NCBI GenBank assembly: GCA_951406725.2
Contig: OX597828.1
Coordinates: 39,494,001-39,558,000 of the forward strand
Direction: 5' to 3'
DNA length: 64,000 nucleotides
From: Octopus vulgaris
Taxonomy: Eukaryota
Shown: positions 5,898 through 58,150 of the stretch, one piece after another
Numbering within the stretch: position 1 is the stretch's first letter
How the letters are laid out: each line of letters opens with the position of its first letter
The notes under the pieces: generated by a model
Seen by the model: only the letters and a program-made list of their open reading frames with translations
The model's database searches: none
What the model was told of the DNA's origin: nothing
Made by a program: the position numbers and the translations under genes

Positions 5898-6002
5898 TCA
5901 CAAACCAGAAACTGACAAAGACCAGAGTCCAATTGTACTCAGCCAGATAATTTCTTCGAATTTACTTTTGTGTTTCATATGAATATGTTCCAGGAAGCCA
6001 TC
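5898..6002 (-). CDS. Bcl-2 family protein, coding exon 2 (end of BH2 and hydrophobic tail)
   Basis: Pyrimidine-rich acceptor (ttttattttccttaatgcag) followed by DGFLEHIHMKHKSKFEEIIWLSTIGLWSLSVSGL-stop. It joins exon 1 in phase 0 to give GGW|DGFLE (compare MCL1 GW|DGFVEF). The C-terminus is hydrophobic like a tail anchor. Intron 6003-12689. Confidence 0.88.
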   Translation of the reverse strand, partial: DGFLEHIHMKHKSKFEEIIWLSTIGLWSLSVSGL

Positions 6003-9720: not shown

Positions 9721-12689
9721 CGCCGACCATTAAATGCTCAGAGTAATGATTAAATTTTAGGTTCTGTTTGGTAACCGACAATTTCCGTTTCAAAAATAAA
9801 GTCAATTCGGCAAGATTTCAAGGCGAAATTGTAGCAATTTTAAAAAATGTTTGAAATACTAAGTGACAGATGTAATTAGATCTAGATCTACTCAAAACAG
9901 GATGTAAAAATGCTAAGAGCTAAGAAAGGAAACGAAAATTCACAAATATGAATTTCTACTCTTGTGTTAGTTACAGTGTGTGTGTTTATATATATACATG
10001 GGCGAAACAATATTTATTGTCGGATTTATGGATAAAATATTTATATATTTATCTAGAGAGTAGTATAGTTTTCGTTAAGTAATTGCCTCGTGTGAGTGTG
10101 TGTGTGTTTTAAAGCTAAAACAATGAAAGTTATGAGAAATAAGGTTTAGATGGCTTCTTTTGGAAATTTACAGAGCAATCAACACCTCTTCTCCGTAAAT
10201 TTCCAGAAGTGGTCTTTACTCTGAAATACTGAAAATTCCAAGTGACAGTACTAACCATCGACCTATACTTAGAAATAGAATTTTACTTAATTTACTATCG
10301 TCGAAAATGAGTGTTTAAAACTGAGACAAGGAAAAAAAAAAAATCAGCGAACACAACTCCTTTGCTATTTATATTTGGTTTTAAATAAATAATTCGATAA
10401 ATTAGGTCGGTCAAAATGTAAAGGAAAGTAATAACGGCAATTAAAATAATTTGGATTGTAGACTAATTTTACTCTCTTTTTGCAACCCAGAATAAAATTG
10501 GAGACTAAATCCGGTTTGGTAGCCTGCAAGTCTGGTTTTAATTTGATAACGAATCTGCCCATCCCACGAACTAATGAGAAAGTGGGAGAACTTCTACGTG
10601 GCAGCAATGATCCGCTAGAAATAGCAGCAAAATCTCACTCAGTACACCTCTCGGCCTCTTAAAAAAGAGAATATAAGTTTGGTAATATGATCTTGGATAG
10701 ATTAAGATAGATATTCACAGCTGGGGTGGCTTTGATCGTAAGCCTGCACGATCAATGCTCAAAACCGGAGCTAAGCTGCAACAACAAAGGCCTTGCAAAA
10801 AGCTACCCCCACACATTTGATGTGCTCGGTTGGCTCCACGTCACATATAATCAATGTTCTTTGTGTGACTGCGACTGAACTGACTTTTATACTCAACAAT
10901 CGATAATCAAAGTATCGAAGTCAAGGAAAATGATGAGTGTGTGTGTGTGTGCTTAGCAACAATAAGCAAAGAGAGAGAGATAGGGAAAATTGGTGAAATA
11001 TATATCAAGGAAAAGATTCCGCCCAAACTTTTAAACTTTATACATAAAGACGAGCGAACAGCTTATATTGTCGTTTGACTTGTTAAAAACCGAAGCCAAA
11101 TGTCCCTCAAACCAGTGTAACGTAGTCCTAGATATAGTGGGGGGAAAATAAAGATAAAAAGGAAGGCTGAAACAGCTTTATTGTCGGGTTATAATTCTAA
11201 AGTGCTATTAAATATACCGACAATAAAACTGGTTTGGTTAGGAAAAAAATTGCAGCCAAATCTCCATGGAATTAAGTCGTATTCTCTTAAAAATAAAATA
11301 TAATAATAGACGCATCGGATCATCTAAATCCTATACAACAAATTAAAAATAGTCTAAATATATGACGGGGTGGCCTTTGTCTGGAAAGTCTAATCATAGG
11401 ACTGAACTAATAGGATGACTTGGAACTAAACAACCACCACCCGATATAAAAAGAGGAGAGATAACTAATTATAGTTTGATTTGTATTGTGAATTTAAAAA
11501 ATTTTTTTCCGTTAATTATTTAAAAGAATTTAGATTGCTTGATATGGATATATTGTCAGACACAATCAAGCAAGGTCGACAACAGTAATTAACGGTCATA
11601 TAAAGTAACAGGGTATTAAGAGATTTCACTGCTATTTCAAGCAGGTCGAACGACTACGTTGAGGCAAGAACAAAATTTTTTTTTAAAAGGGGGAGGGGGT
11701 TGTGTGGAAAGGAATATATAGTTTATTGTTAATTGGCAATTATTTTGTCGGGAATGCGAAATCGAACTGAGTAGGGTTCGAACTCCATAACATAAAGCGA
11801 GGCGCCATAATGACATTAATTAGTGCAATATCATCCCCCTAACGTACTTCAATACTATTTGTATAATAATAAACTGTTTGTATATTAGGTACAGCATAAA
11901 GAAACAAAAGTTTGTGTGAGTGAGAGATTTCATATGAGAATAAAGATCTACAATATTTTTCGCACTTGGTACGTTATGCCGTCAATTAAAATATATTAAA
12001 TAATTAGGACTGTTTTACTGGTCCGTTTTGTAAGAAAAAGTGTTAAAGAATATATTATATAATGCTATTGTAAAACAATTTTTTACAGATAGACTTGCTA
12101 ATTGCTTTTTAATTTCAACTATAATATTTAAAGATAAACAACACCAATTTCGTTTATACTTTCATGATATGTCTGGAAAGTATTTTTATTCAATAAATTA
12201 AATGTGTTTATTTTCTTTTAAAACATGGGAGCAGAATTCTATTTAAGCAATGCCATATATGACCCCTCATAGCACATCTCACAACTGCCCCCGTTTGTTT
12301 GTCAGTCTGGTCTATTCAGATTTTTTGATATCTTTCTTCCCCATTAACACATTTAATTTGTTGGGATTTAAGCCAAAATTTAGGACTTGTTTATATTTCA
12401 AACTGTGATTTCTTTTTTAAATTCGAAAAAGTGACACAAAAAAATTTTTTTACAGTCGTGTAGTTTTCTGTATTAAGAATACAAATTCGTAAAATACTAC
12501 CAAGATAGTTATGAGAGATTATATGGCGTGCTTAAAGCAGAATTTCTCTCCGTAAAATAAATAAATAAAGGCCCATACAATTCTCAAAGCTTGTATTTTG
12601 TTTACTAAATCAGATCTCTAATATTTTATTTCACGTACAAAAAAAACATGAATTTTAAAAATAATTATATATAAAAAATTAAACCTCAC

Positions 12690-13205
12690 CCATCCGCCGT
12701 TATCATTTATCCATATGTCGATCTTGTGGTCTCTAAAGATTTTTATCAAGATTTGGTTATAATGTTCCCAGGAAAGGTCATGCTTTTTTGCTCGCTGATC
12801 TTCCGCCAAAAGGGCCAACATAATGAAAACCATAGAGATACGACGCCAATGCAGATTTTTCCGATCCTCCAGGATGGTGTCCACAACGCAACGATAGGCC
12901 TTTTGTATTGTAAATTCATCAGCAACTTCGCCTAACAATTGGGCAACGTTTTTATGCAGAGCATCTCTGTAAGTGTTGTAAATCTCTAATACTGATTTTC
13001 TCATGCCTGCACAAATGTCGGACTCGGGTTTCGAGATAAAGTGACCTTTATCGAAGTTTAACACCATGTCTTTGACAATTTTGGGCACTTCTTTTCTACA
13101 AAATTTCAGATTTTCTTCATTATCCATGTGCATTACCGATTGAAAGGGGTCCATAACAGGCGAGGAGTTAATACTACAAAAGATATTCGTCAGAACAGAG
13201 ACCAT
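12690..13205 (-). CDS. Bcl-2 family multidomain protein (Mcl-1/Bfl-1-like), coding exon 1
   Basis: First in-frame ATG at 13205 (the ORF-track start at 13268 is TTG). 172 codons include a BH4-like helix (IVKDMVL), a BH3-position helix (ICAGMRKSVLEI), BH1-like LEDRKNLHWRRISMVF and BH2 WINDNGGW. A GTGAGG donor follows immediately at 12689, the phase-0 intron position typical of Bcl-2/Mcl-1 genes. Confidence 0.9.
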
Positions 13206-20227: not shown

Positions 20228-20480
20228 CAGTCAGATAGATAGACAGATATGTAGATAGATGGATAGATAGATAGACAGACAGATAGGTTGATAGAAATAT
20301 AGATAGATAGATAGATAGACAGTCAGATAGGTAGATAGACAGATAGGTAGATAGATAGATAGACAGATAGATAGATAGACAGATAGGTAGATAGATGGAT
20401 AGATAGATAGACATACAGATAGGTTGATAGATAGACAGGTAGGTAGGTAGGTAGGTAGATAGATAGACTGATAGATAGAT
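20166..20480. repeat. (GATA)n/(GACA)n compound microsatellite
   Basis: About 300 bp of gata/gaca/ggta tetramers. Confidence 0.97.
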
Positions 20481-20648
20481 TAGAAATAAAGCTGAGAATA
20501 TCGCTTTAAAAAAATCTTTCCAATATTTCTTTGCCAACCTGACCTACTTGAAACTTTAATTTTTTCTCCTCACAAATCAAGGATATTAACTATTTCACTG
20601 TAAAAATAGCCTCAAAAGCTATCAGACAAAAAGACCAAAGAATATTAA

Positions 20649-20842
20649 TACGTCACGTCACACGTGAATGAATGCTGGCATTCAACGTGAAACATTAAAA
20701 ATGGGTGCGGGTATAAGTATTGTACATATAGTGCGAGTAGGTGTATTGAAATATACATATAATACATAGACACACCTGCTCACACACACACATGTATGTA
20801 TAACATATATACATACATACATACGCATTCTTTATCACGTGA
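20649..20842 (+). promoter_or_regulatory. CRE/ATF-half-site and E-box cluster (putative promoter of BH3-only candidate)
   Basis: ACGTCA twice (20650-20660), CACGTG (20661-20666) and TCACGTGA (20835-20842) in a CpG-retaining stretch. Confidence 0.4.
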
Positions 20843-20859
20843 TGCCGTCACGAGTTATC

Positions 20860-21144
20860 GTTCTTGATATTTTTTCTTTTCTGCTTCATAATTTATTTAT
20901 TTTTTTACATCACGATTCTTGTTATTCTTCGATGTCTTCCAAGAAAGTCGTCTCGTGTGTAACATCTTGTCGTTCGGAAAGCTTTATACGTCTTCCTCTT
21001 AACGGATCCTGTTGATACACAACACAGTAACAGCTCCTGTAAGTCGATTTACTCTTTATTTTGTTTATAATTTCCTTTTTTCCAATATCCAATATCGGTT
21101 TTAATTTATTTCTGATTTTTTTTGACAAGCTACCACCTGTCCAG
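20860..21144 (+). other. Probable first (5'UTR) exon of the BH3-only candidate; 5' end approximate
   Basis: CpG-retaining unique sequence ending at a strong donor CAG|GTATGT (21145), downstream of a CRE/E-box cluster. Confidence 0.45.
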
Positions 21145-21556
21145 GTATGTTTAGTCATTATATATTTTTAAGTGTTTTAATTTTTATTGTTCCTTTCTAA
21201 TTCTAAGTATTTCACTATTAACTTGTAGCTTTCAAGTATAACTATGTTTTACTAAGAAGAAAATATTTAATTTATTTTTGGAGTTGTATGGGTTTTAATC
21301 AGTCTTTTTCGAAAATCTACTATTTCCGCGTCTACCGTAACTTGGAGTTGTTATTTTTCTTACATTGACATATGTCTTCTTAAAAGAATGATCGAATTAT
21401 CGACCTAAACCGAACGATTACTATTGGGAATTAAAACTTGTTTTGCCTGATTGTCAATTTATACTTTGTATTGTCTTCGCGCACTTGACATTCCTCAACA
21501 TGGCTGGGTTTTTCCTCGATAGATTCACTTTCACATCTTTTATTTTTGATCGCCAA

Positions 21557-21653
<97 letters not shown>

Positions 21654-23953
21654 GTTTTATTTTACTAAAGGTATTCCAGTGATGGCCACCTCGTTTACTT
21701 TGGATGTGGTGGTCTTTAAGATTATTCTATCTAATGTGTACCAGTCTTTATTTTAATGTGATGGAGTTTGATTTAGGCGAAATTTGGTTGCAATTTTTAG
21801 CAGGTCGAGTGATTACATAGATGCTGTTTCTCAATCCTAGCTCTTGACCATGTTAACTAGTCCCTTTTCTGGACCCAGTCTAGCCACCAGCCGCGCGCTA
21901 TTTTCATATCTGTCTATAGTAGTTATTGGAATTAGTGAGACATAATCCTCTAGGTCGTCGTCGTGTTGCCGGCTTCGTAAGTCTATACGAAGAAGTAACA
22001 CCCTATATTCTCTTTTGACTTTTTTTCTCGTCTTTTATGACAATCCTTGTCTTGTTTTCTATTATAATTCATTCACATCTAGGATACTCTACCTTACAAG
22101 AATATTAAATTGATCTCCAATACTTAGTTGAATAGAATTTTATTTTAACGACACCGGAAAACAAAACTTGGTTCAATGGTATTTGAACTCTCAAGGTAAA
22201 GGGCTGTAAAAAAAAAATTGCATTTTATCCAACCTTCTAATGAAAATCCAAAGCTTAGCTGATGCATTCCTTTGCAGAATTCTTTTCACTTAATACCGAT
22301 TAACAATGGTTGCTATTTTTAACCGTTCAATAAGCCCCTTGTTAGCTCACATTTTATGTATATGGTACTGTGGTATGTAGTAAATTCTCAGTTCATTGTT
22401 TCTCATTTACCCCACAAAGTTGTTTTGGAAATGCATGAATGTCATAACAGCACAGATATTATAAAATTATTTTTCGTCAATGACACTTGTTTTAAAAATT
22501 CCTGAAATATAGTTCTTAAGAAACAGTGGTGAATGTATCAACAAGCAGAGACAACATTGTTCAGATCCAGAAAAAGACCACCTCTCTGATCAGTTTGTGT
22601 TGTACTACAAAGCTATTTGCAACCTGCATGCAGGGACTACAGCTCTCATCCTTGGCTCAGGTGCATCTGTTTCACACTCAAACATTTTACATTAAAATAC
22701 ACTGAAAATGAGTCCCTCACTAACACATAACCAGTGCCATCTTAAAGGAAGGACATGCTCAGGGATCCCACGAGTCTCCAGGCTGAATTCTAATCTAAAT
22801 ATGTTTGTACTCCAATGCATTGTTTCCTAAATACTGTTGAGACTACTCTGATAACAACTGCTGCCCCACAGATGGAATGTATTGTTTGTGTCCCTCATAC
22901 AAACAACCACAGCTGCTGACCTCCTGTGAACTAGCCAGCTGTATAAGTGATGCTCCAGTTTCTCCTTTTCCCCTCCTCTCATCATATTTGAGATCTCTAA
23001 CTCACTAGCACTTTACTCTGTCCTCTTTTCCTCTGAACTGTATCCCTCTTGAATTCCCACTTCTCCCTAGGTTCACAACTCAAGATATTCTGGTATGATT
23101 TGAGAGAGATTTGACTACAAATTCTAGCAGGTTGAGTGACCCAGAGGCTTCCTTGTGCATTTTCTTTAGAGGTATCAACTTACAAATGTTCATACTGAAC
23201 AATAATCTCATTGGCACTGCATTTTAAAAATACTTAATTTGAAGTGTTTGATGCATCTGAGCAGAACATACTAAATGCATTATAATATTTAGCATTGTAC
23301 TTCTATCTACATCCGGGATCAACAACTTCTCATCATTTTAATGCTACACTTAGATGGAGCAGTGGGGGTCATATTTGCCCATAGTCCACATATATATTAC
23401 ATAATCTTACATATAAAAATTTCCCCTTGTATCTCCCTCCCATTGTCATCACTGGTAATATGTATGTGCAACAAAGGACACGCTGAATAGCCTTCAACAA
23501 CCCACAAATGCATTAGATTTTAAACATGTTTAGAAATGGTCTGCGTCCCATAGAGAACATCTCAATGGTTACATGTGGGCCACCTCCCCATGTGTTGTCA
23601 ACCTCTGTTCTACATCATCAACTCAAAGCCTGCTTCATCTTTTGGCTTCATCTTTTGTCTGCAGGTTTGATAGAGCAAGTAACAATGATACACTTGTGAT
23701 ATCTAGTTGCAGTCTTTACATTTTTGTATTCTAAGTTCAAATCTCAGTGTTGACTTTACCTTCTGGAACAATGATACTAGTCTCATGAACTCCCTTCCTC
23801 CAAATCTTGAACCCTAACATAATTAAGAATCAAGACTAGAGTGGGATTTGGTTCAAATAACAACAGATTCTTATCTTCTTCCATAAGTAAAATAACACAG
23901 TATTTCAAAATTAATGTCCTATAATTTCTTATATGTCTTTATTTTATTTACAG

Positions 23954-24018
23954 ATTTTGATACACTTTCAAAACAAAGGAAAATTCTGTTCAGAAAATCT
24001 GGAAGAAAAGTTTATTTG
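23954..24018 (+). other. Probable 5'UTR exon of the BH3-only candidate
   Basis: Acceptor tctttattttatttacag| and donor G|gtaaat flank a 65-nt unique segment upstream of the coding exon. Confidence 0.5.
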
Positions 24019-25079
24019 GTAAATAAAAATGAATATATTAAAATTTTTTTCTCTCTAGAATCTAATTTTTAAGCTAAAGAGTTTACATTTTTTTAGCTTG
24101 AAAACACTCTTGGTCTTAATATACAAACTTCATGTTTTAGAGTGGTCTACATTAAAATCTTCTGTCAGAATTTTATGTTAACTTATGTTTCTAATATTAG
24201 GCTTATGACTGTGGCCATGCTGGGGCACTGCCTTGAAGAACTTTTTCTCCCTTTTTTTTTTAGTTGAACGAATTGATACCAGATTTTTGTTTTAAGTCTG
24301 GTACTTATTTTATTGGTGTCTTTTACTGAACCACTAAGCTGCACACCAACACCAATTGTCAAGTGGCAGTGGGGAACAAACACTGACACATATACACCAC
24401 ACATACATGTATATATATATATGTACACGACCTTCTTTTCAGTTTCTGTTTACCAAATCCACTCATAAGGTTTTGGTCAGCTTGAGACTATTGTAGAAGA
24501 CACTTGCCCAAGGTGCCACACTGTGGGATTGAGCCTGGAACCCTGTAATTGGGAAGCAGACTCCTCACACATCCACAAACTCAAATATGATGTCTTCAAT
24601 ATAGCATTTTTTAAAGAAAAGCTCTGCTCCCCACTCTCTCTCTGTATATATCCTTAAAAATGTTTTAGCCCGAAGGCCGCGGCCATGCTGGGGCACCACC
24701 GCTGTGAAACAGTCGTACTGCATCACCTCTGGATATCCTGTCGCTTATTTTGAAGTTGTACGGATAACACCGCACTCATTTTTGGTGCTTTTTAAAGTGT
24801 AGAAACATCAGTTAGTTACACCATCATCCTCATTTAACGTCCAGTTTCCATGCTGGCACAGGTTGGATGGTTTAACATGGAGCTGACCACCTGGGTTGCT
24901 GTCCAGATTGTAATTGTCTGTTGTGGCATGGTTTCTATGGCTGGATGCCTTTCCTAATACCAACCGTTTTATAGAGGGTGCTGCATTTATGCTGCACTGG
25001 CATAAGTGCATTTCAGGTAACACCAGAAGAAAGCAATTTTGCTTAGCTTGGCATATCTTCTCAAGTACAGCAAAACGCT

Positions 25080-25350
25080 ACAACTACCGGTCCCTTTTCA
25101 TTTCCTCAGTGAAGCCCAGCATCTAAAGATCCTTTCCCACCACTTTGTCCCACATCTTCCTGGGTCTACCCCCTCCACAGATTCTCTCTGCTATTAGAGC
25201 TCAGCACTTCTTTTTGCAGCTGTCCTCATCCATATGCATCACATGACCAAACCAATGCAGCCTTCCCCCTTGCATACAACATCTGATACTTTTTATACCC
25301 AATTTTCCTCTTAAATCATTTACACTTTGTCATGCATGCACACTACGTTG
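25080..25350 (-). mobile_element. RTE-clade LINE 3' remnant
   Basis: Reverse strand resembles the 16.4-16.7 kb copy (LHWFGHVMHMDEDSC...GRPRKMWD). Confidence 0.65.
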
Positions 25351-25611
25351 AGTTTTGGACCAGCATTTTATGTATGCATAGCATTAGTTATATTGATATA
25401 GCTTCAGGAATGCTTGTTAGTTAATTTTTCAAGTTATCACATTTGATGAGGATTTCAGAAAAACTATTTATGTTAGAAATGACTTTGACAATGTATCATT
25501 CAAGAAATGTGAGCTTCACTTTCTACAGTATTATCCATTTCTTTATTTTTGTAGGATTGACTTCTGAACTAATATTGTATAAGAAATACATATATATAGT
25601 TATATATATAT

Positions 25612-25887
25612 ATGTCTGGAGAAAATTGCTACGTGTGTTCTTCCCAAATGGCTAATCCTGCTGATCTGAATATGGCTGTTGACCCAGATAATTCTGGAAG
25701 TAGTTCAGAATCTAGTCCAGATGTCAACATATATGACCACTGTGGACAGATTCTCCGGCTCCTGGGCGACAGTTTTTATTGGATGACATGTGGTAGAAAA
25801 CTTCAGTTGATTGCCGACAAATTTTATTGTGTACAGATATTACTTCGCCTAACATTGCAAGATGCCATGCCCTATTCACCCATTTAA
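25612..25887 (+). CDS. Candidate BH3-only protein with two tandem BH3 motifs (91 aa)
   Basis: Non-repetitive ORF just 3' of a strong acceptor (ctttatttttgtag|25555), with an in-frame stop upstream of the ATG. A Ser/Asp/Pro-rich N-terminus is followed by CGQILRLLGDSFY (25741-25779) and CGRKLQLIADKFY (25789-25827), both fitting LxxxG/ADxF. A long AU-rich region follows. Confidence 0.72.
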   Translation: MSGENCYVCSSQMANPADLNMAVDPDNSGSSSESSPDVNIYDHCGQILRLLGDSFYWMTCGRKLQLIADKFYCVQILLRLTLQDAMPYSPI

Positions 25888-28800
25888 CCATGGCTGTGAA
25901 ATATTTTTTAAAAGTTGACTGTTAGGGCACTTACGGTTTTTTGTTTTTTTTGGGGGATGTGGGGGGTTTTCAATTTTTAAAAACAAATTTCTTTTTAATA
26001 TTTTATCATTTCAGTGTGAGAGTATCTTTCTCTGAGATGTTCTTCTGTTTTTAATACATAAGTATTTATGTTCACTTAAAATTGATTTAAGAAAAAATTT
26101 CTGATACCCTTTCATTGGGGATTTGTGCTTTTTTTTTTCTTTTTTGTTTTTTAATGAAAATATTCTTAATAGTGATATTCACTATTTAAAGTATGTAAAT
26201 GTGTAGCTCATCACCTATTTAATCTCACTTTAATATTTTTGCCTCTATCAAGGTGGCAAGCTGGTAGAATCACACATCAGGCAGAATGCTTAGCAGCATT
26301 TTGTCCAGCTTTACATTCGGAATCCAAATTTCACCAGGGTCAACTTTGCCTTTCATCCTTTCGGGGTCGATAAAATAAGTACCAGTTGAGTATTGGGGGT
26401 CGATGTAATCGACTAGCCCCTCCTCCAAAATTGCTGGCCTTGTGCCAAAATTTTAAACCAATATTGTTACCTCTTTCTACTACCCTGCTTGCTGGTAGAT
26501 TATTATTATTTTAATTGAAACAACTATATTTTGAGTGTAGACTCAATAAAATTCCATATATGGTAAAGAAATTACAAAAATGTATGAAAGATATGTAAAC
26601 TAAGGTCATTTAATATTATCATTCATAAATTTACATGTAACATCTTTTCTGTGTGAAGGCTTCTGCCTCTAATTGTTATGCACAATGGCTCTGCCACTAA
26701 AATTGTTACTAATGAGATTGTTGGTTAAATTAGTTTAAGATGCTTCTACACAATAGCTGAAAAGCATTGCCTTGTCAAATTGTTTTTAAGGGCAATTTTG
26801 TTGATGAAATATTGTATCCTGTGAATATTTGATTAACAGGAGAAATCATACGCAATGCTAATTTATTAAACCTTTTCTATTTTACTGTCCTGTGATATCT
26901 CTAATTTATTATATGTATTTATTTTTAGTAATGCTTTATTTAAAAATTATTTTTTTTAAGTATTTCAATTCTGAGCTGCTGCTAACCTTCACATAAAACG
27001 ATTTTATCTTGCACCAGTAGACTGTTTACATTTTTGCAGCAGTTCAACCACTAGGTTCGCCACCCCTTCCCCCAAAGAATACCATATACTTGGTATGAAA
27101 GCTTTCAGTAATAAGTTATAGTGTCCCTTCCCGAAACACTTCTAGCAAAACTAAAATAGTCCCTGCTGCTTCTGAACAGAATATTCCCCATCCACCCCAC
27201 TGACCTTCACTGCTTTTCTCCCCCCCCCCACTCTGTCTCTTTAAAGCTCTTACTAAATCATATTAGTCAGTCTTCCTTTTCCGTAACTAATTTTTTTTTT
27301 TCATCTTTAAAATATTTATTAAAACCGCTTCTATTGGTCATTTTATCATTTTAAAATATATGAGATGTACTTGTTTATTACCTTGACAGTGTTTACCGTT
27401 TTAAAAAATTAAATTAGAAAATTGGACAAAACAGAGAACAGAATTGAAAAATTAAAAAGAAAGAGAAAAAAGAAAAACCCAAACAATTCACTGCTTTGGG
27501 TTGAAAAGTTGGGCATGCTGGGAAACCTCTCTAATGGCTATTGAGGCCAGCATGTTTGTAGCATTGCCACGGGTGATGGCGAGGCTGATGCACTGGAACA
27601 TATTTTCCCATGTGTTTTTTACAAACACTGATCTCACCAACTTCACTGTCATTGTTGTTCTTCTAACTAGGAACAAAAAGGAAACACAAGTATTGATTGT
27701 CCCCTACTCATATAGATTACTCTAACCAACAAACCAACCAAGCACCAACACTCTCACTGAAAAGAATTGAGTCACTGGGCTTGTCATACAGTGTAATTCT
27801 CATGGCCAAGCAATGCTTGGAGTGGACTAGTGCTCTAGCCTACTATGAGCTTTGCATTGTGTGTTGCCTTAAAGTGGTTATCTAGCCGAAATTACAAACT
27901 AGTCTAACTTCGTTATAGAGTGGTTGACATTAAGAATATTCAACCAGTAAATATTTACTCTACCAGCCCTAGTTTCTCCCAAATATATTATGAAAATAAC
28001 AAATACAAGCCACATATTTCATATTCGTTTTTTGCATCTTTGTCTGGATGAGACAGCAGGCTGAAATGTTTTAGTGGTGTTCCATGTCTAAAAGCATATC
28101 CTAAATACTTTTTTTTTTTGTTATTATTTATTGTTCTTATCATTAGGGCAGTGAAAAGCAGCGAGCTAGCAGAAATGTTAGCATGCCAAGCAAAATGCTT
28201 AGCAGTATTGTTTATCTTTATGTTCTGAGTTCAAATTCTGCTGAGGTCAACTTTGCCTTCCATCCTCTAGGAGTTGATGAAATAAATACCAGTTGAACAT
28301 TGGGGTTAATATAATTGACTTATCTTGTCCCCTGAAAATGCTGGTCCTGTGCCAAAATTTGAAATCCTTATTATTAGGGCATTGAGTTTGCAGAATCATT
28401 AGAGCATCAGAAAAATGGTTCTGGTCTTTTAGGTTCTGTCTTCAAGTCTTACTTTAGTTAACTTTACCTTTCAACTGTCCAAGGTTGAAAAAATAAAGCA
28501 CTAGTCAAATACTGAGGTTGATCTGATCAACTAACCCCTCCCCTCAAAATTGATGGCCTTCTGCCTACATCAGAAACTACTATTGCTAGTGTGGGAGACT
28601 GACAGAGCTATTAAATACCTAGCAGTATTTGTTCTGGCTCTTTACATTCAGAGTTCAAATCCCACAAAGGTCAGCTTTATCTTTCATCCCTCTGGGGTTG
28701 ATATGACTTTCTCTCCCCTTAAAAATTGATGGTCTTGCTCCTAAATTAGAAATATTTGTTATAACCAATGGTAAGAGTTAGCAATGGCCAAATTGGTTAG

Positions 28801-29462
28801 TGTGTCCAAGAAACACTTCTTTGCAGTATTTAGCTAATGTCTCTTCATGTTCCCAGTTCAACCCCAGTCAATAAAATAAGCATCATTTAAGTATTGATTT
28901 TTTTTTGTTGTTGTCTAAAGCTGTCCCAAAATTTGAGATCCAGTTTCTGTGTTAGAAATCATAATTTTGTTTGACCCTTGTATTTATCTTGTTCACAACA
29001 ACAAAAAGAAAAAAAATTTTTTAACTCTCCAAAACATGTGTAGCTTAATTTGGATTAATTCTGAGATTATATTTCAACAGCTTTTTACCACAGCCAAATA
29101 CGACATGTTTATGCCTGTCTTTTTTACATTCTAAGAAGTTTGGAAGATTTGTTAATTGTTCATCTGTCAAAACTTTTCAAGTATTAACATAGGGCACAGG
29201 CATGGCTGTGTGGTTAGTAACTTTGCTTTGCAACTGCATCAGCACTTTTAGACAACTGCCTTCTGACATAACCTTGAGAGTGATCTCTGGTTGACAGAAA
29301 GTTGTATCGAATTCTGCTGGAGTGATCATTCATTTTAATCCGTCTTTTGGTGTTAACGCCACCACCTGACCCGTGGGCATTCACTGTGTTGTAAGCATTT
29401 GGGTCAGGTTTTCACTTCAAGGAAAACTTTTCTATTTGCTCCTCTGATTGTCATTAATAAAA

Positions 29463-29493
<31 letters not shown>

Positions 29494-29826
29494 AAAAAAA
29501 ATTTTAATGCTAAAGAATATAAGAACCCTCCCCCCCACCAAATTCACTTGGAAGTTTTTGTTATTTTTAAAAGAGCAGCCAAAAAATAATGACTCAGAAC
29601 AATATCTTATTGGTTCAAAATCCTTTTAAGGCTGAAAAAACAATATGCATTTTTTTTTTCTTTATGCATCCGGTTTGTGTTAAAGTACCATATACAAACG
29701 ATCCCACCCTATCATTGTATGAAAGTATTTGTAAGATGGGAATTCTTGTCACCTCATTTTTCTTTACATGTTCCTATCTGTTATTTGCTGCTGTATCAAA
29801 CTGACTCCATGAAAACAAATTTTATA

Positions 29827-29890
29827 AATAAACAATTAAAAAACACTCTTGTTTTTTCTTTTCTATTTTTGTGATATGTGATAGAATAAA
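29827..29890 (+). terminator. Candidate polyadenylation signals for the BH3-only transcript
   Basis: AATAAA at 29827 and 29885, each followed by T/GT-rich sequence, near the end of a ~4 kb AU-rich region. Confidence 0.3.
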
Positions 29891-30366
29891 TGTTATGTAG
29901 TGATATTTTGTCCTCGACACAGATGCAGGTATTAGGAAAAAAAGAAACCTATTTTGACATTAAATGTTATTTCTTGCTAAACAAGCCATGTTTGCCTAAC
30001 GACAGTGTAATGTTTGTGAGTAACACACCATTCTACAAATTTGTTGATAGTGTTTAGGTGTGTGTGTGCACATATATATATATATATATAAAGGCGGCGA
30101 GCTGGCAGAAACGTTAGCATGCCGGGCGAAATGCGTGGCTGTTTTTCGTCTGCCGCTACATTCTGAGTTCAAATTCCGCCGAGGTCGACTTTGCCTTTCA
30201 TCTTTTCAGGGTCGATAAATTAAGTACCAGTTGCGCACTGGGGGTCGATGTAATCGACTTAATCCCTTTGTCCTTGTTTGTCCTCTCTGTGTTTAGCCCC
30301 TTGTGAGTAGTAAAGAAATATATATATATATATATATATTAGAGAGAGAGAGGTTGCAAAAATATG

Positions 30367-35646: not shown

Positions 35647-35670
35647 TATATGCATGTATATATACATATC

Positions 35671-36330
35671 CGTTCGTGGCCGTTTGCCAGCTCTGTCTGG
35701 CCCCGTGTCGGTGGCACGTAAAAGCACCATCCGTCCGTGTCTGTTGCCAGCCTCGGCTGGCCCCCGTGCCGGTGACACGTAAAAGCACCGTCCGCTCGTG
35801 GCCGTTTGCCAGCTCTGTCTGGGAACCGTGTCAGTGGCACGTAAAAGCACCATCTGTTCGCGTCCGTTGCCAGCCTCAGCTGGCCCCCGTACCAGTGACA
35901 CGTAAAAGCACCATCCGTTCATGGCCGTTTGCCAGCTCTGTCTGGCCCCGTGTCGGTGGCACGTAAAAGCACCATCCGTCCGTGTCCGTTGCTGGCCCCC
36001 GTGCCGGTGACACGTAAAAGCACCGTCTGCTCATGGCCGTTTGCCAGCTCTGTCTGGCAACCGTGTCGGTGGCACGTAAAAGCACCATCCGTTCGCGTCC
36101 GTTGCCAGCCTCGGCTGGGCCCCGTGCCAGTGACATGTAAAAGCACCGTCCATTCGTGGCCGGTTGCCAGCTCTGTCTGGCCCCGTGTCGGTGGCACGTA
36201 AAAGCACCATCCGTTCGTGTCCGTTGCCAGCATCGCCTGGCCCCGTGCCGGTGACACATAAAAGCACCATCCGTTCGTGGCCGTTCGCCAGCTCTGTCTG
36301 GCACCTGTGCAGGTGGCACGTAAAAAACAC
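35671..36330 (+). repeat. GC-rich minisatellite (~60-bp unit, ~11 copies) amplified from a SINE internal segment
   Basis: Repeated ggtg(g/a)cacgtaaaagcacc core with two alternating spacer variants; runs directly into a SINE 3' part (36330-36497). Confidence 0.9.
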
Positions 36331-40191: not shown

Positions 40192-41047
40192 TACGAGGAG
40201 TTACCCAAAAGAAACTGGAATTTTGCCATATTATTTTATTCACTTAGTTTTATATGTTTACACTTTTACAACCTTCAAAGTATTCTCCATTTGAAACAAT
40301 GCATCGGTCCAGACACATTTTCCATTTACCAAAGCAGGCCTGCAACACTTGCAAAGTGATGCGTTTTAACGCCTCCAGCATCTTTTCTTCATATCTGCAA
40401 ATTCAGTAGCACCAACTTTTGTCACCAGTGATGACCTTAGGAAAAAAAAAAGATCCAGATCAAATTCTAATTGTTCTTTCAGTTCACAACACGCATTCAG
40501 TTGTAACTGCCTTTGATCTTCCATAAGCAAGCAAGGCACGGATTTTGCCACAACTCTTTTCATTTGTAATTCCTCGCTCCCAATTCATTGGCAGGAGCTC
40601 CACAAAACACCAGTCATATCAAGAAGTTCATCAATTGCTTGGTGATGGTCCTCCATGATCAGTTCATGAATTTTCAAGATGTTTGCATTCATTTGAGAGG
40701 TTGATGGTTGTCCTGAACGAAATTGGTCTTCAAGCGACAAGTGACCATTCCTAAAGCATGCAAACCACTTGTAAACTTGTGCTTTGCTCATGGTAGCATC
40801 CTTGTGAGCTGTTTGAAGCATTACAACCGTTTTGGCTGCCATTTTATGTAGCAGAAAGTAGACAAACATGGAAGAAGCATTGTAAAACAAAGACACACTA
40901 TGTGGCAGTATGAACTCACCCACTGCCACCAGTTAACAGACTGATGCCTGAGGGTTGCATCAAGTGGCTTGTAACAGCAGAAGCCTGAACTACAATAGGT
41001 TTGTCCCATAGAGATCGTCTCCAGTTACTTTTCGGTACTCCCTTGTA
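40192..41047 (-). mobile_element. Internally deleted mariner element
   Basis: TA-flanked imperfect TIRs (tacgaggagttacccaaaagaaactgg / ccagttacttttcggtactcccttgta); decayed transposase VYKWFACFRNGHLSLEDQFRSGQPSTS...MKRVVAKSVPCLL. Confidence 0.85.
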
Positions 41048-56810: not shown

Positions 56811-58150
56811 AGAGGTATCAAACATATTCAGGAGAGAGTAGCAAGTCAGGTGAGGTGGGAGATGTACATACACAGCAAATTTAGAGGTGAAGCTAAGGAA
56901 AGATAAAGCTGCATTACTCCAACCAAGAAGACTCTAAAGACTTGATCAAAGACCTTGGTCTTATAAAGTCCATTGCCAAACTTCTGACATCTAAAGTGCA
57001 AGTCACAAACAAGTGGAAGCATCACCTGGGTTTTTCAAGGTTCTTCACTTGTTGAAATGGATTCTGCTTCAGCCAAAATGTGACGAGTCTATTCGAGGCA
57101 ACTGGAATTGCCTGAAGAGGTACCAAATGTGTGGAACCTCTTCATTGACAGTTCAGCCAAGAGTTCAAAGCTGTGTTGCATCATAATGAGAAAAAGTATC
57201 TGCCTCTTCCTCTGGCTGATTTAGTGTGTCACAAGATAATGGAAAAAAAAACCAAAAAAAAAAAAACCCAGCTTCAAGATCTTACTAGATGCTTTGAAGC
57301 ATAATGAGTATGCTGGGAGATTTATCAGTAATTTTACAATAATGATTATCTTGATGGGTCTTTGAAATAATTTAACCAAGTTTCATTGTTATTGTTTCGC
57401 CATTGGGACAACAGAGACATGGTCACCCATCACAGATGGCACTGGTTACAACAGACAAAGTTCCCTGTGGGAAGGAAGAAGGTCAAGTGAGGGCCATCAG
57501 TGAGCTTCTGTAAGGTGTTGCTCTCACCTCTGCACATAAAAGTGGGTCTTATGAAACAATCTGTCATGGTACTTCATAAGAAATTTGTAGTCCTTAAGTA
57601 CTTTGAAGATATCTTCCCTAAGTTATCTGAGGCAAAAATAAAGCAGGTGTTTTTGTCAGACCATAAAGAAGGTCTTGGAGTGCCTGAAATTCCCCAAGAT
57701 GTTCAGTTACAAGGAGAAAGTAACATTGTTAAAGGAATTCAGGGCTTCCTAAGCAATCACAAGGTAGAAAATTACATGGAACTGGTTGAGACTCTGATGA
57801 AGAACTGCAACAAAATGGGCAGCAAGATGTCCCTGATAAATTGAAGGAAAACATGGGAAAATACTAAGGGAATATTAAGTGTTTCTACCAGAATATGCTA
57901 GACTTAGAAGTCATTGCTAAGAAGTATTTAAAGAAAAATATGATGGCGTACTAATTTTGAGGGCTGATTACATAAAAGCCTTCAAAAATGAAATCTTGCA
58001 AATCTACTCATTTCTTAACTCTAATGTTTGCTTTTATACAACTTAATTATAAATACATATTAAATTTGATTTATATGTTGTTGTTGTTTTTGTCTGAAAA
58101 TGTGCAAACACATAAACACTTTGTAAATAACACCACCCAGGAATAAAAAG
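55250..58150 (+). mobile_element. Decayed intron-containing DNA transposon, probably CMC/Chapaev3-like
   Basis: ATG 55873 (MASRGCKH...), a GT-AG intron (~56080-56565), IWRELTNHSNSCYFC, YPDLP, LFIDSS, KVLLSPLHIKVGLMKQ, FPKLSEAK and GFLSNHKVENY. The family assignment is from recollection of these motifs; boundaries are approximate. Confidence 0.65.
55494..55786. repeat. 30-bp tandem repeat made of heat-shock-element pentamers
   Basis: Unit tctagaattttctagaactttcaagcatag; about 6 near-perfect copies followed by about 4 degenerate ones. Confidence 0.95.

Follow-up and report, generated by a model that had tools for sequence, protein, structure and literature searches.

A spliced and conserved octopus gene encodes a candidate BH3-only protein with two BH3-like motifs

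A spliced gene of Octopus vulgaris encodes a 91-aa protein with two BH3-like motifs. We consider it probable, at roughly 0.7, that the product is a disordered protein of the BH3-only class which folds into the groove of survival-promoting Bcl-2 proteins and likely acts as a death trigger, where binding and killing, and with them any pro-apoptotic activity, are what we infer. The gene lies in a 64-kb window, by which we mean the whole stretch of DNA analyzed, and positions are counted from its first base. An initial annotation, made from the bases alone, had proposed a BH3-only candidate here, and this reading is supported by a spliced transcript, a kept frame, and the presence of both motifs in 6/6 relatives.

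Four sequencing runs were compared over positions 21700-30040: X1, X3, and X5, which come from three studies and are presumed to be RNA, and X2, which is DNA. The presumption fits the GT-AG joint described below and the region 21700-22536, where X1, X3, and X5 have zero depth and the DNA run has cover. A junction of 24018 to 25555, predicted by the initial annotation, is found in 3/3 presumed RNA runs and in 0/1 DNA runs, and the predicted coverage to about 29.9 kb agrees with presumed-RNA contigs that end at 29843, 29805, and 29707. Spliced transcript contigs span the ORF, the transcript on which that annotation had made its reading depend, and contigs covering 25500-27500 are present in 20 of the 24 listed runs. 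The X1 contig carries 98 further bases upstream of 23954, which fits an upstream exon, and the donor at 21144 within a CpG-rich stretch likely marks this candidate exon 1. Ahead of 25612, candidate exon 1, exon 2, and the 5' part of exon 3 all lack an ATG. The features of the gene are as follows.

20401..21600, no strand: CpG-rich promoter-like stretch around candidate exon 1 (CpG observed/expected 1.12-1.24 versus 0.43 for the window)
21047..21144, + strand: candidate non-coding exon 1, donor CCAG/GTATGT, without ATG (98 extra bases on the X1 contig, donor context)
23954..24018, + strand: non-coding exon 2, 65 nt, without ATG (contigs)
24019..25554, + strand: GT-AG intron, 1536 nt (skipped in 3/3 presumed RNA runs and 0/1 DNA runs)
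25555..29843, + strand: last exon, with a 57-nt part of the 5' UTR, the CDS, and a 3' UTR of about 4 kb; end approximate (contig ends; AATAAA at 29827)
25612..25887, + strand: 91-aa CDS with both motifs, wholly inside the last exon (transcript contigs, exact NCBI/UniRef match, single copy)

Translation of 25612-25887(+) yields the same protein that the initial annotation had read, and the upstream stop and splice acceptor that it described are also present: an in-frame TAG lies at 25597-25599, leaving an open frame of 95 aa, and the acceptor is a pyrimidine-rich AG ending at 25554. The gene is single-copy in the 2.8-Gb genome (G000), where the window lies on contig C15. NCBI and UniRef already contain the 91-aa protein as a prediction, along with a 79-aa form starting at Met13. 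An AT microsatellite at 25584-25611 abuts the start codon and makes for a weak start context, and distant relatives have N-terminal extensions where the octopus gene has the upstream stop. High-copy interspersed repeats lie inside the 3' UTR at 26200-26460 and 28150-28900, where depth spikes are seen, and AU-rich elements in this UTR are not in excess (16 versus 16.9 expected). Elsewhere in the window there is a GC-rich tandem array at 35668-36325 with about 11 copies of a 61-bp unit, and the ORFs at 40585-40869(-) and 57551-57844(+) resemble, by eye, what we take to be fragments of DNA-transposon transposases.

The protein divides into five parts, for which the numbers of invariant positions refer to an alignment of 7 sequences.

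25612..25647, + strand: N-terminal segment with CxxC, residues 1-12 (6/12 positions invariant, including C6 and C9)
25648..25740, + strand: acidic Ser-rich linker, residues 13-43, predicted disordered (3/31 invariant; pLDDT 45-50)
25741..25779, + strand: BH3-like motif A, residues 44-56, with L48, G52, D53, and F55 (8/13 invariant)
25789..25827, + strand: BH3-like motif B, residues 60-72, with L64, A68, D69, and F71, BMF-like (7/13 invariant; BMF peptide PDB matches)
25828..25857, + strand: hydrophobic helical tail, residues 73-82, without Asp (sequence and AF2)

The region before motif A has a net charge of -5 to -8 and a polar or charged share of 58-67% across the 7 sequences. An AF2 model built from only these sequences (overall pLDDT 55, pTM 0.24) gives coil over residues 1-39 at pLDDT 45-50 and, at low confidence, helices at 40-60 and 63-85 with a break at 61-62. 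This predicted coil-plus-helices picture is consistent with a disordered protein with helical motifs.

In the accessible text of PMC10107002, the minimal BH3 motif is L-X3-[GAS]-D. The initial annotation had seen two BH3-consensus motifs 16 residues apart, and a pattern scan of the protein recovers them in all 7 sequences, each of which has L-x3-[GA]-D-x-F-Y twice at that spacing. Motifs A and B each have a small residue three positions before the Leu and a hydrophobic residue at all four pocket positions. The loose ("core") and strict patterns used in counting such motifs were composed after the sequence had been seen. Since the loose core pattern has 17 matches in the window, out of 127,996 six-frame positions, a single motif means little. 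The strict pattern has 3 matches in the window, namely motif A, motif B, and one within a neighboring Bcl-2-family gene. When the protein was shuffled 100,000 times at constant composition, two loose core matches appeared in 41 shuffles and two strict ones in 0.

At the DNA level, motifs A and B have 24/39 bases in common, a level that was reached by 0/500 codon shuffles. Judged from this comparison, motifs A and B are an old duplication, and because duplicated motifs are not independent, the two-motif statistics overstate their independence. The internal duplication proposed by the initial annotation is thus borne out for A and B and falls away for a "third echo" that it had included, residues 73-82, which has 17/39 and 13/39 bases in common with the two motifs, a chance level. 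The missing Asp and this chance-level identity rule out the echo as a BH3, and it is better read as the hydrophobic tail.

The orthologue in O. bimaculoides, P0002, is 95% identical and is named only "Uncharacterized protein." Five other relatives (P0009 and P0014-P0017) are 38-47% identical and probably come from other cephalopods. The alignment comprises the octopus protein and these 6 relatives, without P0011, a longer form of P0009; since P0017 is a shorter form of P0015, it holds only about 3 deep lineages. Conservation of the frame and of the Leu and Asp residues, on which the initial annotation had staked its reading, is found in 6/6 relatives. Invariant positions make up 9/10 of the BH3 core, 9/19 of the other positions in 44-72, 3/31 of the linker, and 0/9 of the C-terminal end. 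The invariant non-core residues include Q46, Y56-W57-M58-T59, R62, and Y72, which could form a different binding surface. Separate constraints are suggested by the invariants particular to each motif, Q46 for A and R62 for B.

This pattern bears on whether the reading frame is a gene at all. A chance ORF within a non-coding RNA or untranslated region is highly improbable as an explanation: the frame is short, has a weak start context after the AT microsatellite, and is followed by about 4 kb of 3' UTR, as such an ORF might be, but the frame is retained in relatives that are about 44% identical, together with the N-terminus and both motifs, and every substitution relative to O. bimaculoides falls in residues 1-43, with zero in 44-91.

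Relatives outside this group were found neither among 1.84 billion representatives searched with the single sequence nor in a profile search (12 candidates), and a metagenome scan with the alignment gave 236 pattern matches, none of them confirmed. Three of the five matches of the sequence search (P0007, P0008, and P0010) are long repetitive proteins that matched only in the low-complexity linker and were dropped, and the loci L002, L009-L012, and L014-L017 in G000 were set aside as noise at E > 1.

Assignment of the protein to the BH3-only class depends on its motifs and on what it lacks. The pattern L-X3-[GAS]-D with four hydrophobics and a small residue occurs twice in 7/7 sequences. The protein has 91 aa and no PF00452 match, in keeping with the absence of any other BH motif or Bcl-2 fold, and Pfam and profile comparison find no BH1, BH2, or helical bundle of multi-domain Bcl-2 proteins (PF00452) in 7/7 sequences. 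The long BH3 consensus, as given in a figure legend of PMC10107002, also has acidic and hydrophilic positions at the flanks, and these are not matched: the residue after the Asp is Ser, Lys, or Arg where the consensus is acidic, and the last motif residue is Tyr where it is hydrophilic. BMF likewise departs from the consensus at the residue after the Asp.

None of the 7 sequences has a match in Pfam, and a profile built from them matches nothing in the PDB. The BMF family profile PF15185 matches 0/7 sequences at E up to 10, and its search of G000 skips this locus; the Noxa family profile PF15150 also matches 0/7. Among 177,635 PDB sequences, the only matches to motif B are the BMF BH3 peptides 8iqm_B and 5tzq_C, at E values of 1.1 and 1.4 that are not significant, so that the BMF likeness that the initial annotation had seen in motif B is weakly borne out. 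Motif A, which it had likened to Noxa, has 0 PDB matches. In the ESM Atlas, the named neighbors of the octopus protein, P0001, and of P0017 (47% identical) are BMF, PXT1, Noxa, Bim, Puma, Bik, and a Bak fragment, with scores of 0.76-0.84, including 0.80 and 0.77 for Noxa. The top three for P0001 are unnamed clusters, and BMF clusters are the best named ones. Because these scores do not reach the bar of 0.9 and lie in a range that shuffled proteins often attain, we treat this likeness as a lead only; the structure matches that the Atlas gives for P0001 are short helices that also stay below its naming bar. No further BH3-only gene turned up when G000 was searched with PF08945, PF15185, and PF10514, a result that does not establish the absence of such genes.

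BH3 motifs can originate by convergence or by chance, as noted in the accessible text of PMC10107002. It is worth weighing whether the product is a small helical-repeat protein, possibly sensitive to metals or redox state through its CxxC and other Cys residues and acting on a non-Bcl-2 partner, in which the BH3 appearance is a coincidence doubled by duplication. We rate this as quite unlikely. It accommodates the lack of a significant family match as well as the invariant N-terminal CxxC (C6, C9) and the invariant YWMT between the motifs, for which BH3 biology alone gives no explanation, and duplication turns one chance event (one strict match in 165 of 100,000 shuffles, or one loose match in 3,902 of 100,000) into two motifs. 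It is harder to reconcile with conservation that peaks at the BH3 core positions of both copies (9/10), with Atlas and PDB leads that point to BH3 families only, and with linkage to a Bcl-2-family gene.

This Bcl-2-family gene, which the initial annotation had not mentioned, adjoins the twin-motif gene head to head, with start codons 12,407 bp apart. The neighboring ORF at 12618-13205(-) matches PF00452 at E 1e-8, and the coding exons of the gene are the following.

12690..13205, - strand: coding exon 1, with BH1 HWRR instead of NWGR (PF00452 E 1e-8; equals P0012 letter for letter)
5898..6002, - strand: coding exon 2, hydrophobic C-terminus (product of the gene equals P0012)

PF00452 has 6 matches in the 2.8 Gb of G000, and a placement this close has a rough chance of 5e-5 when judged by distance or of 3-6e-4 when judged by gene adjacency, figures computed after the fact and subject to the caveat that the neighbor may itself have attracted attention to the window. 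Linkage to a Bcl-2-family gene at this low rough chance supports a role in the Bcl-2 pathway. An origin of the twin-motif gene from its neighbor was considered and found no support in profile comparison, in which the profile of the twin-motif family matched neither the neighbor nor P0018 (probability 0.3%). The neighbor has a strict BH3-like motif at about 12909-12947(-), residues 87-99, past the usual BH3 position, and these residues are its best, non-significant, profile match to motif A. The frame of the neighbor runs 23 codons into the intron (12618-12689, -) before a stop, and a record with such an intron-read-through C-terminus, P0006, hints at an isoform without exon 2.

The neighbor has HWRR as its BH1 in 5/5 relatives, where P0018 and P0019 have NWGR. 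Replacing the Gly of BH1 with Arg would be expected to close the groove, and loss of this Gly should hinder ordinary BH3 binding, as for Bcl-2 and Bcl-xL. Because the Gly is lost, the neighbor is not an obvious receptor, and it may represent a Bcl-2 protein whose groove is closed or altered. Its best PDB match is at E 7e-4 only, and its AF2 model (pLDDT 42) is too poor for a fold search. The best candidate receptor, as judged from its sequence, is P0018, which is Bcl-xL-like with an intact NWGR (E 4e-37); P0019 is a second protein with NWGR in the genome, which also has a weakly Bax-like exon (E 0.035). A complex prediction for residues 36-86 with the exon-1 domain of P0018, run without alignments and by a method unproven on peptides and disordered chains, scored 0.03 against a mark of 0.34 and was counted neither for nor against binding. 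A further PF00452 match with an unusual BH1, L005 (G000:C15:58713848-58714072), lies 19 Mb off on the same contig, and L007 has no PDB match at E 0.001.

The neighbor also raises the question of whether the protein is a true BH3 ligand whose main job is something other than killing, in that it would tune one Bcl-2 protein, such as this divergent neighbor, in autophagy, calcium handling, or protein turnover. A non-standard groove, with HWRR in 5/5 relatives and its gene head to head with the ligand gene, could pair with a non-standard ligand; contigs of the twin-motif gene occur in many presumed RNA runs from several studies, and BH3-like ligands with autophagy roles are known, as in Beclin-1 (PMC7022251). 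The motifs, however, fit the standard consensus suited to an NWGR groove, the neighbor's groove is the one expected to be closed, and each gene has a CpG-rich promoter-like region of its own, the two lying about 6-8 kb apart, which makes a shared bidirectional promoter unlikely. We regard such a role as unlikely on balance.

A disordered BH3-only protein that triggers death would be expected to work as follows. L48/L64, L51/I67, F55/F71, and C44/C60 would fill the four hydrophobic pockets of the groove, and D53/D69 would pair with the Arg of NWGR in P0018 and P0019; the conserved ionic contact of the BH3 Asp with this Arg is described in PMC7022251. Occupancy of the groove would free Bax/Bak-type effectors and lead to permeabilized mitochondria. 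Having a second motif likely lets the protein engage more kinds of partner or increases its avidity; the hydrophobic tail, a possible membrane-targeting segment, may direct the protein to membranes. The steps after permeabilization are uncertain in molluscs, in that the accessible text of PMC11463336 states that APAF-1 was not found in molluscs, and that of PMC9389742 reports Apaf1 in a bobtail squid.

On an ideal helix, the 16-residue spacing sets the faces of the two motifs about 160 degrees and 24 A apart, and for this reason two Bcl-2 partners could be held at once. Use of one motif at a time is at least as plausible, since the AF2 helix breaks at 61-62 and the flanks of the motifs overlap. 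A bolder version of the main reading, conceivable and still doubtful, would make the protein a bivalent BH3 adaptor that sits in two grooves, neutralizing two survival proteins or bridging one to Bax/Bak, with the CxxC as a metal or redox switch, an old linkage with the divergent Bcl-2 gene, and the standing of a first working molluscan BH3-only protein.

In the accessible text of a 2013 paper on mussel, a 2017 paper on Pacific oyster, and a 2022 paper on oysters, no BH3-only protein had been identified in bivalves or molluscs (PMC3634015, PMC5550854, PMC8917759), and one of the three suggests a simpler molluscan death network for lack of such proteins. A bobtail squid paper, where accessible, lists Bnip3 as BH3-only and Bid as absent (PMC9389742). 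Suraweera et al. (2022) describe BH3-only proteins as "potentially present" in Lophotrochozoa, and the legend of their Fig. 5a names O. bimaculoides, oysters, scallop, and limpet, found by in-silico BLAST seeded with human Bim, Bad, and Bmf (PMC8998228, accessible part). Given the BMF likeness of motif B, the O. bimaculoides entry may be P0002. For these candidates the accessible part of that paper shows the BH3 region alone, with no mention of a twin motif, gene structure, or linkage. Our literature search, whose coverage leaves most subscription journals outside, found no description of this gene or its twin motif, and a search by accession and motif string returned none.

The gene is a concrete, expressed, and conserved molluscan BH3-only candidate. 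A conserved back-to-back BH3 pair would be a new design, with a bearing on the origin of BH3 motifs and on bivalent BH3 mimetics, and the two short peptides can be tested against the Bcl-xL-like protein of the same genome.

Noxa has a hydrophobic segment after its BH3, as does the octopus protein. Mouse Noxa (PMAIP1, PF15150) is further alike in being a small protein with two BH3 motifs that arose by duplication, and the initial annotation's use of it as a two-BH3 precedent is in print: according to the accessible text of a review, all known BH3-only proteins except mouse Noxa carry one BH3 (PMC4905168). The same text indicates that the mouse duplicated a whole two-exon gene and that human Noxa has one motif, whereas in the octopus gene a 16-residue unit is doubled inside one exon and kept across distant lineages that are about 44% identical. 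The octopus protein also differs from Noxa in having no PF15150 match, and no full p53 site was found in 13.2-25.6 kb with up to 3 mismatches. With vertebrate BMF (PF15185), motif B equals the BMF BH3 peptide at 8/13 motif positions, but the octopus protein has 91 aa, two motifs, and no PF15185 match. Because there is no similarity outside the motif, the resemblance to BMF is likely convergent, and by family profile the protein is not an orthologue of BMF or Noxa. It resembles other lineage-specific proteins in being recognized solely by a short BH3 motif (PMC8998228, PMC10107002, PMC7456325); no sequence similarity between these and the octopus protein was found, Sayonara among them being a coiled-coil protein, and a second BH3 is not described for them in the accessible text of those papers.
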